Assembly: GCA_963749655.1 (NCBI GenBank) | Contig: CAVVOB010000030.1 | Span: 32,001 to 96,000, forward strand | DNA from: Nitrospirota bacterium | Lineage (GTDB): Bacteria; Nitrospirota; UBA9217 | Length of the DNA stretch: 64,000 bases | Reading direction: 5' to 3' | Part shown: positions 13,734-52,962 of the stretch, one piece after another | How the letters are laid out: the number at the start of each line of letters is the position of its first letter | How positions within the stretch are numbered: position 1 is the stretch's first letter | Translations under genes and position numbers: made by a program | The notes under the pieces: generated by a model | The model's input: the letters and a program-made list of their open reading frames with translations, nothing else | Database searches by the model: none | What the model was told of the DNA's origin: nothing

Positions 13734-14505
13734 ATGGGTTTCACCATAGCAGTTGCAGGCAAGGGCGGCACGGGCAAGACCAGCCTCTGCGGCCTGACCA
13801 TTCGATATTTGACAGAGAAGAAAAAGGGGGCCGTGCTCGCCGTCGACGCCGACGCGAACGCAAACCTCCACGACGTGCTCGGGGCTGAATGTCCACGCCA
13901 CGGTCGGCCGGCTGCGGGAAACCTCTCTCGAAGCCATCAAGTCCACTGCTCCGCGTCCGGGCGGCATGAGCATGGAGCAGCTCTTCGATTACCAGATCCA
14001 GCAGGCGCTCGTCGAGGCAAGAGGCTTCGACCTGCTCGTCATGGGCAGGCCCGAGGGCGCGGGCTGCTACTGCGCGGCAAACAACATCATCCGCAAATAC
14101 ATGGACAAGCTGGCCGACACCTATCCCTACACGGTGATGGACAACGAGGCCGGTCTTGAGCATCTTTCCCGCCGCACGACGCAGGACACGGACCTGCTCA
14201 TGATCATCAGCGATTCTTCGGTGCGCGGCATCATGACCGCGGGCCGGATCGGCGGACTGGTCAAAGAGCTGAATCTGAACGTCAAGCGAACGGTGCTGAT
14301 CGTGAACCGCGTGCAGGACGGCACCAGAGAAGACAAGGCGCTTCTCCAGGCGATCGGACAGCAGGGCGTGGAATTCGCGGGCTTTGTTCCCGCAGACGAG
14401 ATGATCTTTGAATACGACTTGAACGGCAGGCCGCTTGTCCAGCTTCCTGCAGATTCGAAGGCGCTGAAGAGTTTTTTCACCATCATGGACAAGCTCGTGC
14501 CGTGA
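13734..14505 (+). CDS. acsF: AcsF/CooC2 nickel-insertion ATPase for acetyl-CoA synthase (frameshift near 13884)
   Basis: IAVAGKGGTGKTS, DADANANL, then after removing one G from CTCGGGGCTG: GRPEGAGCYCAAN, DNEAGLEHLSRR. Confidence 0.85.
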
Positions 14506-14588
14506 AGCGTGAAAAGTAAGAGGTGAAACGTGAAACGCACGCCGCAGCCGGCTTTTTACATTTTCCTTTTCACGTTTAACGTTTCACG
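14501..14588. repeat. Inverted heptamer arms CGTGAAA / TTTCACG
   Basis: cgtgaag cgtgaaa agtaaga ggtgaaa cgtgaaa ... ttttaca ttttcct tttcacg tttaacg tttcacg; first unit contains the acsF stop. Confidence 0.9.
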
Positions 14589-14594
14589 CCGCTC

Positions 14595-15479
14595 ATGAAC
14601 AAAACCGTCGCCATCATAGGCGCAGGCCGTGTCGGCAGCTCAATCGGTTTTCTGCTGAAACAGGCAGGATACCCGATAGCGGCGGTGACGGCCCGTTCGA
14701 CGGCATCCGCGGAAAAAGCAGCGGCTGTTGTAAGCGGGGCAGAGCCCCTGACGGATGTGGTAAAGGCGGCGTCGCGGGCCGACATCGTTCTTATCACAAC
14801 GCCGGACCGCGCGATCAAAGAGGTGTGCGACACGATCGCAGCGGGCGGAGGGTTCAAAAGAGGCTCCCTGGTCGCGCATACCTCGGGGGCCCATACGCTG
14901 GACCTTCTTGAGGCGGCTTTAACGCGCGGCGCGAAGCGGGCGGTTATTCATCCGCTTCAATCCGTGCCGAGCGCGGAGCAGGGCATTCGGACGCTCCCGG
15001 GATCGTATTTTCGCATCGAAGCCGATTCCGAGGCGCTGGCAACGGCGCGCAGCATCGTCGGGGCGCTGGGCGGAATCGAACTGGAGATGCCGAAGTGGAG
15101 CTCCGACCAGGACTCCGCAGCCCTCTACCATGCGGGCGCAGTTGCGGTATCCAATTATTTCGTAGCCCTTGTTGATTACGGATTGAAGTTTTACGAGGCG
15201 CTGGGAGCGGACAGGAAAGAGGCGCTCAAGGCTGTTCTGCCGCTCATCAAGGGGACGCTTCATAACATGGAAACCCTGGGCGTCCCCGGGGCACTGACGG
15301 GGCCGATCATGCGGGGCGACGGCGAAACGGTGAAGCGTCATCTGGACGCCATGGAGCGGCGTACTCCGGAGCTTATGCGTCTCTACCGGGAACTGGCAAT
15401 CCAGACGGTCAGGTCAGCCAAGGATAAGGGCAGTATAACGGCGCAGACGGCGGAAGAACTGCTTAGGTTACTTCGGTGA
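14595..15479 (+). CDS. Rossmann-like/DUF2520 oxidoreductase (PanG-type ketopantoate reductase candidate)
   Basis: IIGAGRVG, ITTPD, HTSGA, IHPLQS, LYHAGAVAVSN, ALTGPIMRGD. Confidence 0.85.
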   Translation: MNKTVAIIGAGRVGSSIGFLLKQAGYPIAAVTARSTASAEKAAAVVSGAEPLTDVVKAASRADIVLITTPDRAIKEVCDTIAAGGGFKRGSLVAHTSGAHTLDLLEAALTRGAKRAVIHPLQSVPSAEQGIRTLPGSYFRIEADSEALATARSIVGALGGIELEMPKWSSDQDSAALYHAGAVAVSNYFVALVDYGLKFYEALGADRKEALKAVLPLIKGTLHNMETLGVPGALTGPIMRGDGETVKRHLDAMERRTPELMRLYRELAIQTVRSAKDKGSITAQTAEELLRLLR

Positions 15480-15550
15480 GGAGTCAGGCGTAAGGAGTGA
15501 GGAGATTTTTCTCTGTTTTTCCCCTTACTCCTAACATTTCACTCCTCACT
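15475..15550. repeat. Inverted heptamer arms AGTGAGG / CCTCACT
   Basis: ggtgagg agtcagg cgtaagg agtgagg ... ccttact cctaaca tttcact cctcact; first unit contains the upstream stop. Confidence 0.9.
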
Positions 15551-15579
15551 GTTTTACTTTGAAAGGAGAAGTATCGAAC

Positions 15580-17526: not shown

Positions 17527-18867
17527 ATGGCACTCTCCGGTGTTGAAATATTCAAGCATCTCCCGAAAACCAACTGCAAAAAATGCGGTCATCCGACCTG
17601 CCTTGCCTTTGCCATGAAGCTTGCGGCGAAACAGGCGAGCCTCGATGCCTGCCCTGACGCGTCCGAGGATGCAAAGAAGATCCTGGGCGAATCCGCAGCG
17701 CCTCCCATCCGGGACATCACGCTCGGCACGGGCGGCAAGGCCGTCAAGGTGGGCGGCGAGATCTGCATGTTCCGCCATGAGAAGAAATTCTTCAATCCCA
17801 ACGTGTTCGCCGTCGCCATCAAGGCCTCCGAGGCCGGCGACGCCGCGGCAAAGAAGATCGAGGCGGTCAAGGCCTCCGAGATCGACCGCGTGGGCCAGAA
17901 GCTCCGCGTCGATGCCATCGCCGTGACCGACGAGGGCGGCGACGCGGCGAAGTTCGCCGCAGTCGTGAAGCAGGTGGTCGACGGCGCGCCCGGCGTGCCG
18001 GTCATCCTCGTCTCCAAGACGCCGGCGACGATCGAAGCGGGCATCGCGCACTGCGCGGACAAGAAGCCCCTGATCTATGCCGCGACCGCCGAGAACGCCG
18101 AAGCCATGGCAAAGATCGCGAAAGAGAAAAAGGCCTCCCTGGCCGTGGCTGCCGACGGTCTGGACGCCCTCACGGCGCTGTCCGAGAAGGTGAAGGCCCT
18201 CGGCGTGGACGACCTGGTCCTCGACTCCGGAGCGCGCAAGGCCAAGGACATGATCGAGCACTTCACCATCATGCGCCGGGCGGCGATCAAGAAGAACTTC
18301 AAGCCCCTGGGCTATCCCATCATCACCTTCGCGACCCGCGACAATTCCGTGTCCGAGGCCATTGCCGCCGCGATCGGGACCATGAAGTACGCCTCCATCA
18401 TCATCCTGAGCAGCGTGGAAAAGTGGAAGATGCTCGCGCTCCTGTCGCTCCGGCAGAACATCTACACCGACCCGCAGGTGCCGATGCAGGTCGCGCAGAA
18501 CATCTACAAGGTCGGCGACGCGAAGGAAAACTCGCCGCTCATGATCACGACCAATTTCTCCCTCTCCTACTTCATCGTCCGCGGCGAAGTGGAGAACAGC
18601 AAGGTGCCGTCGTGGCTCGCGGTCATGGACAATGAAGGCCTGTCGGTGCTCACGGCCTGGGCCGCGGGAAAGTTCACGGCAAGCAAGATCGCGCAGTTCG
18701 TGACCGAGAGCGGCGTGGAGAAGAACATCAGCCACAAGGAGCTCATCATTCCCGGGTACGTGGCGGTGCTTTCCGGCGCGCTCGAGGAAAAGCTGCCGGG
18801 CTGGAAGATCACCGTGGGACCGCGCGAAGCGAACCAGCTCCCGACGTTCCTGAAAGCAAGAGCATAA
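17527..18867 (+). CDS. acsC: Corrinoid Fe-S protein large subunit
   Basis: LPKTNCKKCGHPTCLAFA, RQNIYTDPQ, TTNFSLSYF, GLSVLTAWAAGKF, VGPREA. Confidence 0.97.
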   Translation: MALSGVEIFKHLPKTNCKKCGHPTCLAFAMKLAAKQASLDACPDASEDAKKILGESAAPPIRDITLGTGGKAVKVGGEICMFRHEKKFFNPNVFAVAIKASEAGDAAAKKIEAVKASEIDRVGQKLRVDAIAVTDEGGDAAKFAAVVKQVVDGAPGVPVILVSKTPATIEAGIAHCADKKPLIYAATAENAEAMAKIAKEKKASLAVAADGLDALTALSEKVKALGVDDLVLDSGARKAKDMIEHFTIMRRAAIKKNFKPLGYPIITFATRDNSVSEAIAAAIGTMKYASIIILSSVEKWKMLALLSLRQNIYTDPQVPMQVAQNIYKVGDAKENSPLMITTNFSLSYFIVRGEVENSKVPSWLAVMDNEGLSVLTAWAAGKFTASKIAQFVTESGVEKNISHKELIIPGYVAVLSGALEEKLPGWKITVGPREANQLPTFLKARA

Positions 18868-18873
18868 AACGCC

Positions 18874-18939
18874 CGTGAGGCGTGAGGAGTGAGGAGTGAG
18901 GGGTTGCTTATTCCCCTTACGCCTAACCCCTTACTCCTT
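18874..18939. repeat. Inverted heptamer arms AGTGAGG / CCTTACT
   Basis: cgtgagg cgtgagg agtgagg agtgagg ... ccttacg cctaacc ccttact. Confidence 0.9.
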
Positions 18940-18964
18940 CCGGCATTTCTAAAGGAGTCGTTCC

Positions 18965-21434: not shown

Positions 21435-21917
21435 ATGGAAGATAAACTGGAAGGAATCATCACGCGGTATCAGGAGAACGAAGGCAATCTGATCTCGATC
21501 CTTCAGGACATCGAGAGCGAGTTCGGCTATCTGCGCGAGGACGCCATCAACTGGGTCTCGGAGCGGCTCGATGTTCCGCCGGCGAAGTTTTTCGGCATCG
21601 CCACGTTTTACGCCCAGTTCCACCTGAAGCCCAAGGGCAAGAACGTGATCACCGCATGCTGCGGCACCGCGTGCCACGTCAAGGGCTCCGAACGGCTGAT
21701 CAACAGCCTGGTCAAGGAGCTGGCCATTCCCAACGGCGAGGACACGTCGGAAGACCTCAACTTCACCGTGGAAAAGGTCAACTGCGTGGGCGCCTGCAGC
21801 ATCGCGCCGGTCATCATCATCAATAAAACCGTGCACGGCAAGATGACGCCGGACAAGCTTATGAAAGAGACGAAGACCCTCAAGGAGGGGAAGAAGGAGT
21901 ATACGGATTACATTTAA
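21435..21917 (+). CDS. NuoE/HydC-like [2Fe-2S] subunit
   Basis: LISILQDIE..FGYL, ATFYAQF, CCGTACHVKG, VNCVGACSIAP. Confidence 0.93.
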   Translation: MEDKLEGIITRYQENEGNLISILQDIESEFGYLREDAINWVSERLDVPPAKFFGIATFYAQFHLKPKGKNVITACCGTACHVKGSERLINSLVKELAIPNGEDTSEDLNFTVEKVNCVGACSIAPVIIINKTVHGKMTPDKLMKETKTLKEGKKEYTDYI

Positions 21918-21919
21918 GG

Positions 21920-22038
21920 CGTGAAACGGGCAACGTAAAACGTAAAACGTGAAACGGGTAACGTCAAGCGTGAGATGTAAGATCTTGTACCTTTCCCCTT
22001 TCACGTTTTGTCTAACCTTTCACGTCTGACGTTTCACG
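21920..22038. repeat. Inverted heptamer arms CGTGAAA / TTTCACG
   Basis: cgtgaaa cgggcaa cgtaaaa cgtaaaa cgtgaaa cgggtaa cgtcaag cgtgaga tgtaaga ... tttcccc tttcacg .. tttcacg tctgacg tttcacg. Confidence 0.92.
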
Positions 22039-22054
22039 CATTTTTGGGGTGACC

Positions 22055-23833
22055 ATGAGTAAGGACGTTTCAATAAAAATCTGCATGGGAACAGGCGGCA
22101 TTGCCGCGGGCGGCGAAGCGGTGATGTCCTTGTTTACCAAGACGCTTGCCTCCGCCGGCGTCAAGGCATCGGTGGAGAGAAACTGCTCGGTCCACAAAGT
22201 GGGGTGCCGCGGCTTCTGCGCCCGCGACGTGCTCGTGGACGTAATTGTCGACGGCGTCAAGTCGACCTATCAATACATCAAGCCGGACATGGTCGAGCGG
22301 ATCGTGCAGGAGCACATCCTCGGGGAAACGCCCGTGGGCGATTGGCTCGTCAAGGACGATTATCATACGTTTCATGACAAGCAGATCAAGGTCGTTCTGT
22401 CCGACTGCGGTGAGGTGGACCCCGAGGACATCAACTCCTATATCGGCCGCGGCGGGTATGAGGCGGCAAAGACGGTGCTCACCTCGATGGCCCCCCAGGG
22501 CGTCATCGACATCATCAAGGCGTCGGGTCTTCGCGGCCGCGGCGGCGCCGGTTTCCCCACGGGGACCAAATGGGACATGGCGATCAAGGCTCCGGGGCCC
22601 GCCAAATATCTGATCTGCAATGCCGACGAAGGCGACCCGGGCGCCTTCATGGACCGCTCTGTCGTCGAGGGCAATCCGCACGCTGTGCTCGAAGGCATGA
22701 TCATCGGCGCCTACGCCATCGGAGCGCCCTACGGCTACGTGTACATCCGGGCGGAGTACCCCCTTGCCGTTGAACGCCTCCACCTCGCGATCAAGCAGGC
22801 AAAGGAGCAGGGGTACCTCGGCAAGAACATCCTCGGCAAGGGCTTCGATTTCAATATCAAAGTGAAACTCGGCGCAGGCGCCTTCGTGTGCGGCGAAGAA
22901 ACCGCGCTGATCGCCTCCATCGAAGGCAAACGGGGACAGCCGCGCGCCAAGCCGCCCTTCCCGGTCCAGAAGGGGCTGTGGGGCAAGCCGACCATCATCA
23001 ACAACGTCGAGACCCTCGCCAACGTACCGTACATCATCCGCAGGGGCGCGGAGTGGTATGCAGGCATGGGCACCGAGAAGAGCAAGGGGACCAAAGTTTT
23101 CGCGCTGACAGGCAAGATACAGAACTCGGGCCTGATCGAAGTGCCGATGGGCATCCCGCTCAAAGAGGTCATCTACGATATCGGCGGCGGCATCGAAGGC
23201 GGAAGGAAACTCAAGGCCGTCCAGACCGGCGGTCCTTCCGGCGGATGCATTCCTGCGAGCATCGTGGAAACCACGCTCGACTATGAGTCCCTGGGCAAGG
23301 TCGGTTCGATCATGGGCTCCGGCGGCATGGTGGTCCTGGATGAGACGGACTGCATGGTAAACGTCGCCAAGTACTTCCTCCAGTTCACGCAGTCGGAGTC
23401 CTGCGGGAAGTGCGTGCCCTGCCGCGTGGGCACCAAGCGGCTTCTCGAGATCCTGACCCGGATCACCGAGGGCAGGGGCAGGGAGGACGATATCGAGCTC
23501 CTGGAGAGTCTGAGCAGCGACGTGAAGACGTCGTCCCTCTGCGGCCTCGGCCAGAGCGCGCCCAACCCGGTCCTCTCCACGATCAAGTATTATCGCGACG
23601 AGTACGAGGCACATATTTTCGAGAAGCGCTGTCCCGCAGGCGTGTGCAAGGACCTCCTCTCCTACAGCATCGTCGAGCAGTTCTGCAAAGGCTGCACCGC
23701 CTGCACCCGGGTCTGTCCGGCCGGCGCGATCATCGGCGAGAAGAAGAAGCCGCACAAGATCGTCCAGGACATCTGCATCAAGTGCGGGGCCTGCTTTGAG
23801 ACCTGCAAGTTCAAGGCGATTAAAAAAGGCTGA
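22055..23833 (+). CDS. NuoF/HydB-like FMN/NAD(H)-binding subunit with N-terminal [2Fe-2S] and C-terminal 2x[4Fe-4S]
   Basis: SGLRGRGGAGFPTG, CNADEGDPGAFMDR, GAGAFVCGEETAL, ESCGKCVPCRVG, CKGCTACTRVCP, CIKCGACFETC. Confidence 0.95.
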   Translation: MSKDVSIKICMGTGGIAAGGEAVMSLFTKTLASAGVKASVERNCSVHKVGCRGFCARDVLVDVIVDGVKSTYQYIKPDMVERIVQEHILGETPVGDWLVKDDYHTFHDKQIKVVLSDCGEVDPEDINSYIGRGGYEAAKTVLTSMAPQGVIDIIKASGLRGRGGAGFPTGTKWDMAIKAPGPAKYLICNADEGDPGAFMDRSVVEGNPHAVLEGMIIGAYAIGAPYGYVYIRAEYPLAVERLHLAIKQAKEQGYLGKNILGKGFDFNIKVKLGAGAFVCGEETALIASIEGKRGQPRAKPPFPVQKGLWGKPTIINNVETLANVPYIIRRGAEWYAGMGTEKSKGTKVFALTGKIQNSGLIEVPMGIPLKEVIYDIGGGIEGGRKLKAVQTGGPSGGCIPASIVETTLDYESLGKVGSIMGSGGMVVLDETDCMVNVAKYFLQFTQSESCGKCVPCRVGTKRLLEILTRITEGRGREDDIELLESLSSDVKTSSLCGLGQSAPNPVLSTIKYYRDEYEAHIFEKRCPAGVCKDLLSYSIVEQFCKGCTACTRVCPAGAIIGEKKKPHKIVQDICIKCGACFETCKFKAIKKG

Positions 23834-23839
23834 TCGAAC

Positions 23840-23874
23840 CGTCAGGAGTCAGGAGTGAGGAGTCAGGAGTCAGG
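23840..23874. repeat. Left heptamer arm (AGTCAGG x5) flanking the four-helix-bundle gene
   Basis: cgtcagg agtcagg agtgagg agtcagg agtcagg. Confidence 0.92.
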
Positions 23875-23883
23875 TGAAAAGGA

Positions 23884-24249
23884 ATGGACAAGCCACACAA
23901 AAAATTGAATGTGTGGAAGTCGGCCATTGAGCTTGTACTCGAAATATACCAGCTTACTCAGTTGTTTCCGGGAGAAGAAAAATATGGTCTCGCCAGCCAG
24001 ATGAAACGGGCCGCCGTCAGCGTGGCTAGCAACATAGCGGAGGGCGCAGCGAGAAAGACAAAGAAGGAATTTATTCAATATCTGCACATGGCACAAGGTT
24101 CAATCAGTGAATTGGATACGCAGCTTGAAATAACAAAACAACTTAAGTACGTACCAGTAGACAGGGTGTCTGCGGTAGATGTGTTGATGGAGAAAACAGA
24201 CAAAATGCTGAGCGGATTAATTAAACATCAGCAATCTCCTCACTCCTGA
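23884..24249 (+). CDS. Four-helix-bundle protein (23S rRNA IVS protein / bAvd-like family)
   Basis: HKKLNVWKSA, FPGEEKYGLASQMKRAAVSVASNIAEG, EFIQYLHMAQGSISELDTQL; visibly more AT-rich than neighbours. Confidence 0.92.
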   Translation: MDKPHKKLNVWKSAIELVLEIYQLTQLFPGEEKYGLASQMKRAAVSVASNIAEGAARKTKKEFIQYLHMAQGSISELDTQLEITKQLKYVPVDRVSAVDVLMEKTDKMLSGLIKHQQSPHS

Positions 24250-24265
24250 CACCTTACTCCTTACT
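24238..24265. repeat. Right inverted heptamer arm flanking the four-helix-bundle gene
   Basis: cctcact cctgaca ccttact ccttact; contains the gene's TGA stop. Confidence 0.9.
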
Positions 24266-24288
24266 AAACGAACGAATGCGGAGTAAAG

Positions 24289-26961
24289 ATGGCTAACCTC
24301 ACTATAAATGGAAAACAAATAACGGTACCTGACGGCACCACGGTACTCGACGCCGCGCGCCGGAACGACATTTACATCCCGACGCTCTGCGACGACCCGC
24401 GGCTCGAGCCCTACGGCGGCTGCAGGCTCTGCCTCGTTCAGATCAAGGGCATGCCCCGTCCGGTCACGGCCTGCACCACGCCGGTCACCGAGGCCATGGA
24501 AGTGGAGACCTCGAACGCGCAGATCGAGCGGCAACGGCGCACGATCGTGGAGCTTCTGCTCTCCGACCACCCGAACGACTGCATGGTGTGCGAGCGGGCC
24601 GGCGACTGCACGCTCCAGGAGCTTGCTTACTTCCACGAAATCCGCACGAACCGCTTTGCCGGTGAGCGCCGGACCTATGCCAAAAAGGACGCGAATCCCT
24701 TCATCGAACGGGACATGGAAAAATGCATCCTCTGCGGCAAGTGCGTGCGGGTGTGCGAGGAGATCCAGGGCGTTGCCGCAATCGACATCGCGAACCGCGG
24801 ATTTACGGCAAAAGTTGCCACGGCCTTCGAGAAGGACCTGAACTGCGAGTTCTGCGGCCAGTGCGTTTCCGTCTGCCCCACCGGCGCGCTGATGGGCAAG
24901 GAGTCGCTGGGCAAGGGCAGGCAGAAGGACGTGAAGCAGGTGGAGACCGTGTGCTCCTACTGCGGCTGCGGCTGCAACCTGACGCTCCACGTGAGCAGGA
25001 ACGAAGTGGTGCGCGTCACGTCGCGCCCCGACACGGTGAACGAGGGCTGGCTCTGCGTCAAGGGCCGCTTCGGATTCAGTTTCATCAACAGCCCCGACAG
25101 GCTCACGACGCCGCTCATCAGGAAGGACGGCAAGCTCGTTCCCGCCTCGTGGGACGAGGCGTTCGGGTACATCGTCGACAAACTCACCGCCATCAAGGCG
25201 AAGCACGGCCCCGACGCCATTGGCGGCCTCTCCTCGGCCCGGTGCACGAACGAGGAAAACTACCTGTTCCAGAAATTCATCCGCGCGGGGATCGGCACGA
25301 ACAACGTCGATCACTGCGCGCGCCTCTGACACAGCTCGACTGTGGCCGGTCTGGCCACCGTATTCGGCTCCGGGGCAATGACGAACTCGATCGCCGAGAT
25401 CGAGAACAATGACGCGCTGTTCGTCATCGGCTCGAACACCAAGGAAAGCCATCCCATCATCGCGCTCCGCATGATCAAGGCAAAGCGCAAGGGCGCCAGG
25501 ATCATCGTTGCCGATCCGCGGCGGGTGCCGATGGTGCGCTTCGCCGACATCTGGCTGCAGCACCGCCCGGGCACCGACGTCGCGCTCCTGAACGGCATGA
25601 TGCACGTGATCGTGAAGGAAGGCCTTGTCAAGAAAGACTTCATCGAAGCCATGACCGAAGGATTCGACGACGCATTCCGAAAGAACCTCGAAACCTACAC
25701 GCCCGAGGCAGCGTCGAAGATCACCGGCGTTCCAGCGGACCTGATCGTGAAGGCGGCCCGCATGTACGGCAGTGCCGAGCGGGCGGGCATCTATTACACC
25801 ATGGGCATCACCCAGCACGCCCACGGCACGGAGAACGTGTTTTCCATCGCCAACCTGGCCCTCATGACCGGAAACCTCGGCAAGGAGAGCGCAGGCGTCA
25901 ACCCGCTTCGCGGACAGAACAATGTCCAGGGCTCGACGGACATGGGCTGCGTGCCGAACAACTATCCCGGCTATCAGCGCGTCACCATCCCGGCGATCCG
26001 GGAGAAGTTCGAGGCCCTCTGGAAGGTGAAACTCTCGGACAAGGAAGGCATGACCGCTACGGAGATGATCCCGGCCGCGGAGAAGGGCTCTCTGAAGGCG
26101 CTGTATATCATGGGTGAGAACCCCGTGGTCTCGGACCCCAACTGCGCTCACACCGTGAAGGCGCTCAAAACGCTCGAGCTTCTGGTGGTCCAGGACATCT
26201 TCATGACCGAAACGGCGGAGCTGGCGCACGTTGTCCTGCCCGGCTCATCCTTCGCCGAGAAGGTCGGAACGTTCACGAACACCGAGCGCCGCGTCCAGCG
26301 GGTGAGAAGGGCGGTCAACTCGCCCGGGCTTGCCATGAAAGACTCGCTCATTATCATGGAGCTGTCGAAGCGCATGGGCTATGAAATGAACTACTCGCAC
26401 ACCGTCGAGGTCTTCCGCGAGATCGGCCAGGCCTGGCCTGCTCTTGCCGGCATGAGCTACGCGCGGCTCGAGGACGGGGGGCTGCAGTGGCCCTGCCCCA
26501 CGCACGATCATCCGGGCACGCAGTTCCTGTTCAAGGGCGGGTTCCCGCGCGGGAAGGGGCGTTTCTCGCTCGTTACGTTCAAACCGTCCCATGAGGAGAC
26601 GGACAGCGAGTATCCGTTCCTCCTGACCACCGGACGGACGCTCTTCCAGTATCACACCGGCACCATGACCAGGCGCGTCAAGGCGATCAACACGATATCG
26701 CCCGAGGCCTTCATCGAGATCAATCCCGAGGACGCAAAGGCCCTTGCCGTCCGGGAGGGCTCGAGCGTGAAGGTCAGCTCGCGGCGCGGTGCGATCACGC
26801 TCAAGGTCATGGTGTCCAAGCGGCCCGCGAAAGGCGTCGTGTTCATCCCCTTCCATTTCAAGGAAGCGGCGGCCAATGCGCTCACGAGCGCCAAGGCCCT
26901 TGATCCGATCGCAAAAATTCCGGCCTTTAAAGTATCGGCAGTAAGAATCGAACAGGCATGA
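24289..26961 (+). CDS. fdhF: Selenocysteine-containing formate dehydrogenase alpha subunit with NuoG-like Fe-S N-terminus (890 aa, Sec at TGA 25327-25329)
   Basis: Two in-frame ORFs joined by one TGA, giving NVDHCARL-U-HSSTVAGL (FdhF active-site motif); CSYCGCGC..LCVKG, PLRGQNNVQG, GTFTNTERR. Confidence 0.95.
25342..25358 (+). promoter_or_regulatory. Bacterial SECIS element
   Basis: Hairpin GTGGCC-GGTCT-GGCCAC 12 nt after UGA; loop resembles the E. coli fdhF SECIS (GGUCU). Confidence 0.85.
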
Positions 26962-27543: not shown

Positions 27544-27548
27544 GAAGC

Positions 27549-27609
27549 CGTGAAATGTGAGGAGTAAGGCGAGAGGTCGTTTTAATCTCCTTACTCCTAA
27601 CACCTTACT
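27549..27609. repeat. Inverted heptamer arms AGTAAGG / CCTTACT
   Basis: cgtgaaa tgtgagg agtaagg cgagagg ... ccttact cctaaca ccttact. Confidence 0.85.
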
Positions 27610-27647
27610 ACTACTGAATTTTACTTTTCGAAAAGGGAGGTAGACGA

Positions 27648-34999: not shown

Positions 35000-35208
35000 A
35001 GCGGGTCAGACATCAGAAATTAAGTTATTGTTATAACCGTTGAACCTACCTTCCTACTTCTTCAACACCGTCCTCTTCTCCTCCAGTTCTTCCCCTTCGA
35101 AGGAAGGATTAGCGGGTCAGACATCAGAAATTAAGTTATCGTTATAAGAGTTGGACCTATCTTCCTACTTCTTCAACATCGTCCTCTTCCTCCAGTTTTT
35201 CCCCTTCG
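35000..35208. repeat. ~100 bp imperfect tandem duplication including the nadB 3' end
   Basis: agcgggtcagacatcagaaattaagttat...ctacttcttcaaca..gtcctcttc..ccag..ttccccttcg at 35000-35099 and 35111-35208. Confidence 0.92.
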
Positions 35209-44684: not shown

Positions 44685-44688
44685 ATCG

Positions 44689-46224
<1,536 letters not shown>

Positions 46225-51984: not shown

Positions 51985-52962
51985 ATGCCACGTCAGGCGA
52001 GATTAGATGTCCCCGGCGCGCTCCATCACATCATGGTGCGGGGGAATGACAAAACGAAAATATTCAGAGACGACGAAGACAAGGCGCGTTTTCTCGAACG
52101 TCTTGGTCAAAACATTGAGGAGGGAAAGAGCGCTGTTTATGCTTGGGTGCTCATGGACAACCACATTCATATCCTCTTCAAAAGCGGGGAAGACGGCATC
52201 TCGACCGTCATGAGAAAACTCCTCACTTGGTATGCCCAGTATTTCAATCGCAGGCACGGCCGAACCGGCCATTTGTTTGAAAATCGCTATAAATCTATCC
52301 TCTGCGATGAAGACAACTATCTGCTTGCCCTTATTCGATATATTCATCTTAACCCTGTCCGCGCGAAGCTTGTAGCGAACCTTGAGCAATTGGACCGCTA
52401 TCGTTGGACCGGCCACAGAGCGATCATCGGAAAGATGAGTCATGCATGGATGGACGTTGATCGAGTTCTGGCCGAGTTTGGATCGACCCGGCGTAAGGCA
52501 CTGCATGAGTATCGTCGTTTCATGCAGGAGGGCTTTGGTCAGGGGCGGCTGCCGGAACTTACCGGGGGCGGTTTGATAAGAAGCAAGGGCGGCTGGTCGC
52601 AAGTTCTCTCGTCGCGGCGAAGCGGACAAAGGGATGAATACGATGAGCGTATATTGGGCAGTGGCGACTTCGTGAATAGCATCCTGAAAGAAACAGAAGA
52701 AAAAACGAAGCATCAATTGAAACTCCGGCGAAGCGGCAGGACGCTCGCCTCAATCGTCGAGGAAGAATGTAAAAAAGGGGTGATAAGTCCGAACGAACTC
52801 AAAGGCGGCGGGCGTCGCAGAAAGATAAGCGAACTCAGAACAACGATAGCCAAAAGAGGAAGGGATGAGCTTGGTTTATCGCTTGCAGAAATTGCGCGGC
52901 ATGTGGGAGTGAATACGTCGAGCATCCGCAAGGCAATTTTAAAAAGGGAAGGGACGAAATAG
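51985..52962 (+). CDS. REP-associated tyrosine transposase (HUH Y1) with C-terminal DnaA-C-like HTH
   Basis: MPRQAR...HHIMVRGN, YAWVLMDNHIHIL, YFNRRHGRTGHLFENRY, RYIHLNPVRA, LSLAEIARHVG. Confidence 0.92.
   Translation: MPRQARLDVPGALHHIMVRGNDKTKIFRDDEDKARFLERLGQNIEEGKSAVYAWVLMDNHIHILFKSGEDGISTVMRKLLTWYAQYFNRRHGRTGHLFENRYKSILCDEDNYLLALIRYIHLNPVRAKLVANLEQLDRYRWTGHRAIIGKMSHAWMDVDRVLAEFGSTRRKALHEYRRFMQEGFGQGRLPELTGGGLIRSKGGWSQVLSSRRSGQRDEYDERILGSGDFVNSILKETEEKTKHQLKLRRSGRTLASIVEEECKKGVISPNELKGGGRRRKISELRTTIAKRGRDELGLSLAEIARHVGVNTSSIRKAILKREGTK

Follow-up and report, generated by a model that had tools for sequence, protein, structure and literature searches.

Described systems and the element

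Intervening sequences (IVSs) of 23S rRNA, known from Leptospira and Coxiella, carry a gene of PF05635/TIGR02436, the S23p/IVS-protein family of four-helix-bundle (4HB) proteins (below, the family), in a loop closed by a stem of terminal inverted repeats. In the Coxiella IVS, according to the accessible text of its description, these repeats form a 28-bp stem, three tandem GACAGAT heptamers and a degenerate one stand before the S23p start in a number that varies between strains, and RNase III cuts were mapped within the stem in vitro (PMC4990558). Here we describe an element of comparable architecture in a stretch of 64,000 nucleotides from a Nitrospirota bacterium (assembly GCA_963749655.1, contig CAVVOB010000030.1, positions 32,001 to 96,000 of the forward strand), which as a whole is called the window. 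A 121-aa 4HB gene occupies the loop of a long hairpin, each arm of which consists of about five tandem heptamers inverted with respect to the other arm; the hairpin lies in an operon spacer between a NuoF-like gene and the formate dehydrogenase (FDH) gene fdhA. The same arrangement of gene and arms characterises the protein family as a whole and is found in many phyla. The genome that carries the window, G000 below, comprises 4.27 Mb in 39 contigs and is 87%-complete; the window sits on its contig C30, and the 121-aa protein encoded at 23884-24249 is termed P0001.

How does the locus compare with the rRNA elements? It shares with them the family protein in the loop and the terminal inverted repeats that close the stem and, with the Coxiella IVS as described in the accessible text, tandem heptamers of variable number ahead of the open reading frame (ORF) (PMC4990558). 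It differs in that the host RNA is the nuoF-fdhA mRNA spacer and not helix 45 of 23S rRNA, in that each arm is made up of some five heptamers, in that the element occurs alongside hundreds of gene-less heptamer arrays, and in that its ORF is under purifying selection, whereas the Coxiella S23p ORF is described, in the text available, as decaying. A classical 23S rRNA IVS was considered and rejected: the element is not inside a 23S helix, its flanks encode NuoF-like and FdhA proteins, and a scan of the window gave no rRNA match, no Rfam family reaching its threshold there.

Other described systems also invite comparison. A RAYT gene is flanked by inverted copies of a repeat that is dispersed elsewhere as gene-less intergenic hairpins, with one gene per repeat family. 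The locus resembles REPIN-RAYT systems in that the repeats bracketing a 4HB gene belong to a family dispersed gene-less in the same genome (4-54 arrays per element). It differs in that RAYTs are Y1 transposases, whereas no catalytic motif is known in the 4HB protein, and in that a variable number of tandem heptamers takes the place of a fixed palindrome. Avd, a protein of diversity-generating retroelements (DGRs), binds RNA and reverse transcriptase. Avd and P0001 have a homologous four-helix-bundle fold, and each entry among the related structures contains five chains, but P0001 scores below the curated cut-offs of the Avd profiles (PF22296, E 4.6e-08; NF033474, 34.7 bits; cut-offs 40 and 80 bits, respectively) and no reverse transcriptase gene adjoins it. 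A role as DGR accessory protein was rejected on this score and on the position of the sole RVT_1 match in G000 (C33:19865-20530), which is on a different contig and beside none of the 4HB genes. Template or variable repeats did not come to light either, no search having been aimed at them.

Intergenic tandem heptamers are known in their own right, e.g. the cyanobacterial STRR, GGGAATC in Xanthomonas and TAACTGA in Beggiatoaceae; the available texts give their function as unknown, and report that their positions are conserved between species and that in Xanthomonas they often form close convergent pairs (70-75 cases) (PMC4692102, PMC4679880). In these texts no protein gene is linked to the repeats, whereas here the arrays bracket a specific gene family; 'S23' and 'four helix' are absent from both main texts, as are '23S' and 'intervening' from that of PMC4679880. 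Among open-access papers and preprints, no link of PF05635 genes outside rRNA to inverted heptamer arrays was found beyond the Coxiella IVS, an earlier statement elsewhere or in family notes being possible; nor was there a statement in these sources that the arms of a 4HB gene match the dispersed heptamer family of its genome. The protein family, the rRNA IVSs and the dispersed or inverted heptamer arrays of Xanthomonas, cyanobacteria and Beggiatoaceae were thus known already.

Most family genes lie between inverted heptamer arms

Five of the six PF05635 matches in G000 lie between complementary heptamer arrays. The 4HB genes are on contigs C30, C14, C20, C18 and C38, and the arm units of the five bracketed genes all differ (AGTCAGG, GTTTCGA, GGGCAAG/GGGCCAG, AGTTTTG/AGTTTTT and AGTGCGG). 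By comparison, only 1/3000 random 330-nt windows of this genome passes the bracket test at period 7, and 4/3000 at any period from 5 to 11. The sixth match, a weak one, is located outside the window at C30:183261-183473, in a 242-aa open frame without heptamer arms. Long forms of this kind (191-292 aa) recur in several relatives and may represent a separate subfamily.

Bracketing extends well beyond this genome. In a set of 40 relatives from the same phylum the family is present in 26 (27/41 with G000 included); the best locus was taken from each, 24 were testable, and 18 of these are bracketed, compared with 0/44 shifted controls. Two loci that pass (L022 and L024) carry complete hairpins on each side, and three of the six that fail (L004, L007 and L010) appear bracketed by eye. 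A wider search with a six-sequence alignment, keeping one genome per species, gave 80 loci, 75 of them testable, from metagenome-assembled genomes (MAGs) and isolates labelled Bacteroidota, Acidobacteriota, Nitrospirota, Desulfobacterota, Omnitrophota, Elusimicrobia, Beta- and Gammaproteobacteria and others. Here 54/75 are bracketed, 44 with period 7 and 10 with period 8, never 6 or 9, vs 5/148 shifted controls. The first-pass annotation of the window had raised the possibility that family genes are enriched between inverted heptamer arms, and the counts bear this out strongly: bracketing of this gene family is not chance. In an earlier pass, where 5' and 3' flanks were mismatched between loci, the null scores averaged 11.2 (95th percentile 16.5, maximum 30); the height of this null is most probably due to the GTGA/GTAA core that many arms have in common.

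The 54 bracketed loci of the wide set have a common layout. Median numbers of units are 4.9 and 5.0 per arm (10th-90th percentile 3.2-8.5), the median inner distance is 396 nt, and the start codon follows the end of the 5' arm by a median of 16.5 nt. The stop codon precedes the 3' arm in 32 loci, lies within it in 16 and follows it in 6. A G-rich arm at the 5' end with a C-rich arm at the 3' end is the rule (49 loci), and at least three GTRA cores are found in 24 of the 5' arms. Stops in all three sense frames are present in 32 of the 5' arms; the 3' arm has stops in all three antisense frames in 30 loci and in all three sense frames in only 7.

Neighbouring genes, as called crudely by the longest ORF, are mostly co-oriented with the 4HB gene (41:11 upstream and 46:8 downstream); where both neighbours could be called, both are co-oriented in 28/35. 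A bracketed gene in the relative G031 (1501-1806 of L023:1276-1982) lies between two tRNA genes (Rfam, 59.8 and 62.4 bits), and these two were the only Rfam matches at six relatives' loci.

Anatomy of the element

The spacer from the stop of the NuoF-like gene (23831-23833) to the fdhA ATG (24289) measures 455 nt, and its features are listed in Table 1. Read from 23840, the 5' arm is cGTCAGG AGTCAGG AGTGAGG AGTCAGG AGTCAGG (to 23874). Nine bases separate the arm from the start of the ORF (ATG 23884), and by eye its last unit runs into a Shine-Dalgarno-like AGGTG at 23872-23876, 7 nt 5' of that ATG. At the other end, the stop of the 4HB gene falls within the CCTGACA unit of the 3' arm. Positions 23848-23862 and 24236-24250 are exact reverse complements over 15 bp, and this stem encloses the ORF in both the minimum free energy and the centroid RNA folds (z -3.3; 0/100 shuffles as good). 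The G+C content of the cassette is 0.42-0.47, compared with 0.60-0.68 in the flanks.

Much of this was anticipated at first pass: a 121-aa 4HB gene between a NuoF-like and a formate dehydrogenase gene, its richness in A+T, and a complementary right arm that supplies the stop codon all agree with the profiles, the base composition and the coordinates. The left arm had been given as five copies of AGTCAGG; there are indeed about five heptamers, of which one is a variant and the first is imperfect.

A scan of 23400-24500 gave no sigma-70-like promoter and no terminator on the + strand. The 3' arm as part of an intrinsic terminator was considered and rejected, since no terminator-like site was found on that strand and the arm is followed by AAACGAACGAATG.

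The neighbourhood is a Wood-Ljungdahl cluster. Pfam assigns the genes to acetyl-CoA synthase/carbon monoxide dehydrogenase (ACS/CODH) beta, NuoE-like and NuoF-like proteins, FdhA, a cyclic nucleotide monophosphate (cNMP)-binding protein and formate-tetrahydrofolate ligase. Reading frame 24289-25329 ends in the in-frame TGA 25327-25329 of fdhA, within the motif HCARLUHSS when TGA is translated as U; the codon, read as selenocysteine, joins that ORF to 25342-26961, for a predicted FdhA of 890 residues.

Table 1. Positions in the window of the cassette, its neighbours and the gene-less hairpins
Feature	Position	Strand	Units, profile or remark	RNA fold
NuoF-like (Nuo51 FMN/4Fe-4S) gene, upstream neighbour	22049..23833	+	PF01512 E 3.5e-48; PF10589 E 8.7e-35	
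5' arm	23841..23874	+	about 5 tandem heptamers GTCAGGA, one of them GTGAGGA; G-rich; Tandem Repeats Finder (TRF) period 7, 4.9 copies, 92% matches	
4HB gene (121 aa)	23884..24249	+	PF05635/TIGR02436 profiles; TGA 24247-24249	
3' arm	24236..24265	+	C-rich; CTCCTCACT CCTGACA CCTTACT CCTTACT; TRF period 7, 4.3 copies	
Spacer tail, 23 nt	24266..24288	+	GGAG at 24280-24283, 5 nt before fdhA ATG (sequence)	
fdhA (NuoG-like Fe-S N-terminus and molybdopterin oxidoreductase)	24289..26961	+	Pfam	
Gene-less hairpin	15474..15551	+	GTGAGGA, GTCAGGC, GTAAGGA / CCTTACT, CCTCACT	15470-15555: -38.2 kcal/mol, z -6.4
Gene-less hairpin, just upstream of ACS/CODH beta	18871..18944	+	GTGAGGC, GTGAGGA x3 / CCTTACG, CCTAACC, CCTTACT	18862-18945: -39.4 kcal/mol, z -4.8
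Gene-less hairpin, between cNMP-binding and formate-tetrahydrofolate ligase genes	27550..27608	+	GTGAGGA, GTAAGGC / CCTTACT, CCTAACA	27545-27620: -22.6 kcal/mol, z -3.2
Gene-less hairpin	14495-14595		CGTGAAA/CGTAAAA-type	-35.0 kcal/mol
Gene-less hairpin	21915-22045		CGTGAAA/CGTAAAA-type	-41.2 kcal/mol
Gene-less hairpin	44685-44785		CGTGAAA/CGTAAAA-type	-25.2 kcal/mol

The protein

Judged by its profile matches, P0001 is a full-length PF05635/TIGR02436 four-helix-bundle protein. It covers profile positions 1-106 of 106 in PF05635 (E 5e-37; 126.8 bits, cut-off 33.8) and scores 122.2 bits against TIGR02436 (cut-off 24) and 140 bits against NF008911 (cut-off 137). The nearest solved structure is 2gsc_A (E 7.3e-28), with 2rld_A also matching (E 1.2e-05), and each entry contains five chains. 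A Xanthomonas homologue has a pentameric crystal structure and is called a homopentamer in the accessible text of PMC4990558.

Comparison of four copies at nuoF-fdhA junctions gives 0.18-0.38 for the proportion of nonsynonymous differences (pN) and 0.81-0.92 for that of synonymous ones (pS), the synonymous sites being saturated. The protein is under purifying selection, and the contrast indicates that it has long been kept by selection at junctions of this type. Not all copies appear intact. The bracketed copy at C20:75802-76074 of G000 covers only profile positions 2-92 and ends early (…DREQEK*), and several relatives' copies contain internal stops, e.g. TAA in both copies of G036. Some cassettes are thus decaying.

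Gene-less hairpins and their relation to the gene

Heptamer hairpins without a gene are also present in the same operon region. The three sites that the first-pass annotation had reported as carrying the same arms without cargo, at 15475, 18874 and 27549, exist and fold as hairpins (Table 1); their units are related to those of the element and not identical with them. For the CGTGAAA/CGTAAAA-type arms of further hairpins in the window, no corresponding 4HB gene was found in the 87%-complete genome.

Heptamers are a general feature of this genome. Period 7 accounts for 19/53 TRF rows in the window (period 14 for 7/53) and is the commonest period in G000 as a whole (574/2475 rows). A strict detector finds 336 heptamer arrays in G000; over 300 kb, first-order Markov shuffles gave 1, 0 and 0 arrays, where the real sequence has 17. 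Open frames hold far fewer of the arrays than of random sites (102/336 vs 758/1000), and G-rich arrays often have a complementary partner within 160 nt downstream (64/160, vs 4/152 in a control 2 kb away). As paired arrays are so abundant, a gene lying between two of them needs a control. Among the listed complementary pairs at least 120 nt apart, those that combine strong arms with an inner distance of about 360-390 nt enclose 4HB genes; the remaining listed pairs enclose no notable ORF, a tRNA, or parts of ordinary genes between two separate hairpins. At C28:320963-321181 of G000, a tRNA-Ser(TGA) gene (aragorn) lies between ATTGCGG-type arrays, with an apparent second tRNA after it, so that heptamer arrays sit in a tRNA cluster too.

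Are the filled and the gene-less hairpins related? By exact shared 12-mers, the filled elements of G000 match 4, 6, 20, 21 and 54 free arrays, 104/328 in total. The arms of the 54 foreign cassettes, compared with the same free arrays, have a median of 0, and 7/54 reach at least 4. Arm units were also traced in four genomes of other lineages, with four loci that were picked for clean arms before the outcome was known: the unit of one cassette, repeated three times, was counted in five genomes, overlapping registers included. GTGATTN x3 from Luteimonas cucumeris (G041) occurs 211 times in its own genome and GGGTAAC x3 from a Bacteroidales MAG (G042) 78 times, with 0 in each of the other four; GTGAAAN x3 from a Burkholderiales MAG (G043) has 83 matches at home, falling at about 18 listed places, and 0-4 elsewhere, and GTRAATN x3 from a Pyrinomonadaceae MAG (G044) has 277 and 0-7. 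Many of these three-unit matches are convergent pairs 50-100 nt apart. The four genomes contain 2, 5, 1 and 4 family genes, respectively, and by eye the paralogues within G041, G042 and G044 use different units, as in G000. Long GGGTAAC arrays stand at the ends of contigs C53, C74, C142 and C172 of G042. Such arrays probably break assemblies, so that draft genomes are likely to yield too low a number of arrays and of bracketed genes.

The density of arrays points in the same direction. About 100 kb was sampled from each of 21 genomes, the value for G000 being the mean of 27 blocks, and two genomes (G002 and G011) were classed as lacking the family despite weak fragments. Strict arrays per 100 kb number 1, 1, 2, 3, 5, 5, 6.8, 9, 14 and 18 in the ten genomes with the family and 0, 0, 0, 0, 0, 1, 1, 1, 1, 1 and 6 in the eleven without it (Mann-Whitney p 0.0017, which is overstated because the genomes are kin; Spearman 0.81). 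The exception among the latter is G009, with 6 arrays per 100 kb and no family match in an 84% complete genome.

These observations support a link between filled and gene-less hairpins. The first-pass annotation had proposed such a link and had offered the empty pairs as possible scars of the gene. The link stands, through shared unit families and co-occurrence, and the scars do not: a family hidden Markov model run against six-frame translations of 254 array regions recovered only the five known genes and no 4HB remnants. Gene-less hairpins as recent scars are ruled out by this lack of remnants.

The nuoF-fdhA junction in relatives

Eighteen orthologous nuoF-fdhA junctions (G000 included) were compared, with FdhA N-termini 76-100% identical. 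In 11/18 the genes are 2-4 nt apart, with neither arms nor 4HB gene. Four have heptamer-bearing spacers of 44-112 nt without the gene: AATTGCGG-type heptamers in G012 and G013 (82-88 nt), and GACGCGG-type ones in G017 (44 nt) and G021 (112 nt). Two are filled, in G000 and in G023, which belongs to another genus, and in the last (G018) the script did not locate the end of NuoF. Presence and absence at this junction had been suggested at first pass as an informative comparison, and the outcome favours the proposal of an inserted cassette made there.

The G023 protein is 63% identical to P0001, and its arms are of the ACGTAAGG/CGTGAAA type instead. The gene is likewise present in a paralogous FDH operon of G020 (4HB protein 55% identical, arms different again) and in the operon of L061, from a MAG labelled Nitrospirae (NuoF 78%, 4HB 60% and FdhA 65% identical), making four filled operons overall. 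The tail before fdhA (…GCGGAGTAAAG-ATG) recurs in G012, G013 and G023. In a relative's metagenome contig, 66 letters of different sequence connect 23829 to 24349. Did the gene enter this junction once? In the FdhA tree 9/17 inner branches are unresolved and bootstrap support is not settled, so that one gain followed by several clean losses cannot be separated from repeated gains or transfer.

Further filled sites are shared between genera: one by the C20 copy of G000, L007 and L010, one by L012 and L016, where the product of the downstream gene starts like MutS by eye, and one by L011, L015 and L013. At each of these the arms differ between genomes yet remain complementary, which indicates that both arms change in concert.

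Possible modes of action

On balance we regard the element as probably an IVS-type cassette in an operon spacer, processed by RNase III and forming one system with the gene-less hairpins. The cassette would be co-transcribed within the Wood-Ljungdahl/FDH operon RNA, where its arms would pair through the 15 perfect bp and an imperfect extension. The host's RNase III, encoded by a single gene in G000, might then cut the stem, as predicted by analogy with the cuts reported in vitro for the homologous S23p-bearing 23S IVS of Coxiella. The cut would release a 4HB mRNA that can be translated and would part the nuoF message from that of fdhA, at little cost to the host. Of the hairpins built from its unit family, many would lack a gene and the cassette would be one that carries it. 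The likeness to rRNA IVSs noted at first pass gains strength from the Coxiella element, where, in the accessible text, tandem heptamers precede S23p and the stem is cut by RNase III in vitro (PMC4990558).

Several observations weigh against this reading. The bracket test was failed by 21/75 loci of the wide set and 6/24 of the relatives. The perfect duplex is 15 bp long and the stems are mismatched at about heptamer spacing; a short, mismatched stem may be a poor RNase III substrate. Among the mismatches of 95 stems, scored on the sense strand, G.U (128) is not in excess of A.C (173), hence selection for pairing in the sense RNA is not demonstrated, and a role at the DNA level fits equally well. 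The matching public runs share at most 0.10 of sampled words and yielded contigs of relatives, none of which bears on RNA ends or expression; in the one RNA run nothing covers 23912-24319. The correlation with array density is built on related genomes and 100-kb samples, and within the genus the contrast is weak (1, 2 and 6.8 with the gene; 0, 1, 1, 1 and 6 without). Protein similarity does not track the arm unit, P0001 being only 35-36% identical to proteins with AGTCAGG-type arms. Lastly, the Coxiella authors, in the text available, consider it probable that S23p is not produced in vivo in Coxiella and give the RNA the greater importance (PMC4990558).

Could the repeats act as DNA? A repeat system of the REPIN-RAYT kind, with the arms as DNA hairpins or cruciforms and RNA pairing incidental, is an unlikely alternative. 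The gene-bearing copy would then be the master of its family, supplying a factor that copies or maintains the gene-less hairpins. Such a role would explain why one paralogue goes with one unit family (5 in 5 in G000, 4 in 4 in G044, 5 in 5 in G042 and 2 in 2 in G041) and the strand-symmetric polarity of the arms, seen both in the G-rich 5' arm of 49/54 loci and in the best partners of G-rich arrays in G000, 61 of which are downstream and 10 upstream. The confinement of arm units to their own genomes (78-277 own matches vs 0-7 in others), the co-occurrence of the gene with free arrays and the absence of G.U bias in the stems are likewise in keeping with it. The 121-aa four-helix bundle, however, has no known nuclease or recombinase motif, and the unit sequence is not followed by protein similarity. 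G014 has 5 family genes but 1 array per 100 kb, and the array-rich G009 has no family match at all. Target-site duplications or recent identical copies did not turn up, no search having been made for them.

A parallel layout in the same genome also favours action at the DNA level, as Y1-transposase genes of G000 lie inside inverted repeats of their own. There are nine PF01797 matches (Y1 transposase, RAYT/IS200-like), including one in the window at 52024-52347 (C30:84024-84347), and several of the genes carry repeats such as GGGGTCAGACATC..GAAATTA (C13 and C28 copies), which are not heptamer arrays. No strict heptamer array was found within 1.5 kb of the four + strand matches checked. Membership of the heptamer arrays in a RAYT system, or association with one, was rejected: the bracketed gene is PF05635, and the nine PF01797 matches are elsewhere with other flanking repeats. 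A 111-bp tandem repeat at 35000-35208 of the window (1.9 copies) has a unit that holds GGGTCAGACATCAGAAATTAAGTT and resembles the Y1-flanking repeat of C13 and C28.

Somewhat less likely still is that the arms are binding sites for the encoded pentamer, about five single- or double-stranded RNA heptamers being bound. The pentamer would in this way govern translation of its own message, or how the operon RNA is processed or how stable it is, and would act in trans at the gene-less hairpins in post-transcriptional regulation. The five chains in each of 2gsc and 2rld and the Xanthomonas homopentamer (PMC4990558, accessible text) may be set beside the median of 4.9 and 5.0 units per arm. The match of a pentamer to some five heptamers is attractive and rests on numbers only; the arms range from 3.2 to 8.5 units (10th-90th percentile). 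The last unit of the 5' arm provides the likely ribosome-binding site, the related Avd binds RNA and reverse transcriptase in DGRs, and purifying selection on the protein is in agreement with binding. Arm units, however, vary almost freely between orthologues while conserved residues stay, which is hard to fit with sequence-specific recognition.

Coincidence or passive capture, in which a small gene that is often transferred landed between two generic spacer hairpins, is very improbable: 336 strict arrays mostly outside open frames and several gene-less hairpins in the same operon would offer the opportunity, but at most 4/3000 random windows are bracketed vs 5/6 family genes, no other G000 gene lies between close complementary arrays among the pairs listed, the L012 gene is bracketed even though its genome, G014, has few free arrays (1 per 100 kb), and bracketing holds across phyla.

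The IVS-type cassette remains the reading we prefer, and a broader proposal can be put forward tentatively, as one that we hold to be less likely than not: a so far unrecognised repeat system of many phyla could have the PF05635 genes as those of its members that carry a gene, and each paralogue would make or keep its own family of heptamer hairpins. The cyanobacterial STRR and Xanthomonas GGGAATC repeats would be among such families, and the protein would have a RAYT-like role, about five heptamers being held by an Avd-like ring of five subunits. The IVSs of rRNA would be a special case in which the element landed in 23S rRNA, and the constant polarity, with the G-rich arm 5' on either strand, and the period of 7 or 8 would reflect the way arrays are made or a need for stops in three frames.

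Significance

There is a substantial chance that the cassette marks an unrecognised, widespread gene-plus-repeat system. We know of no function established for the S23p/IVS protein family since its discovery in rRNA intervening sequences in the 1990s. Two old puzzles meet at this locus, the function of that family and the tandem heptamer repeats, which the accessible texts on them leave unexplained (PMC4692102, PMC4679880). If the family-wide rule is true, as the counts indicate, IVSs are a particular form of a general cassette that is also carried in mRNA and tRNA operons, the protein gains a candidate ligand in its own arms, and a gene can be proposed as the partner of the dispersed heptamer hairpins. 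For the annotation of this organism, the cassette may split or modulate a highly expressed transcript, that of the Wood-Ljungdahl/FDH operon.

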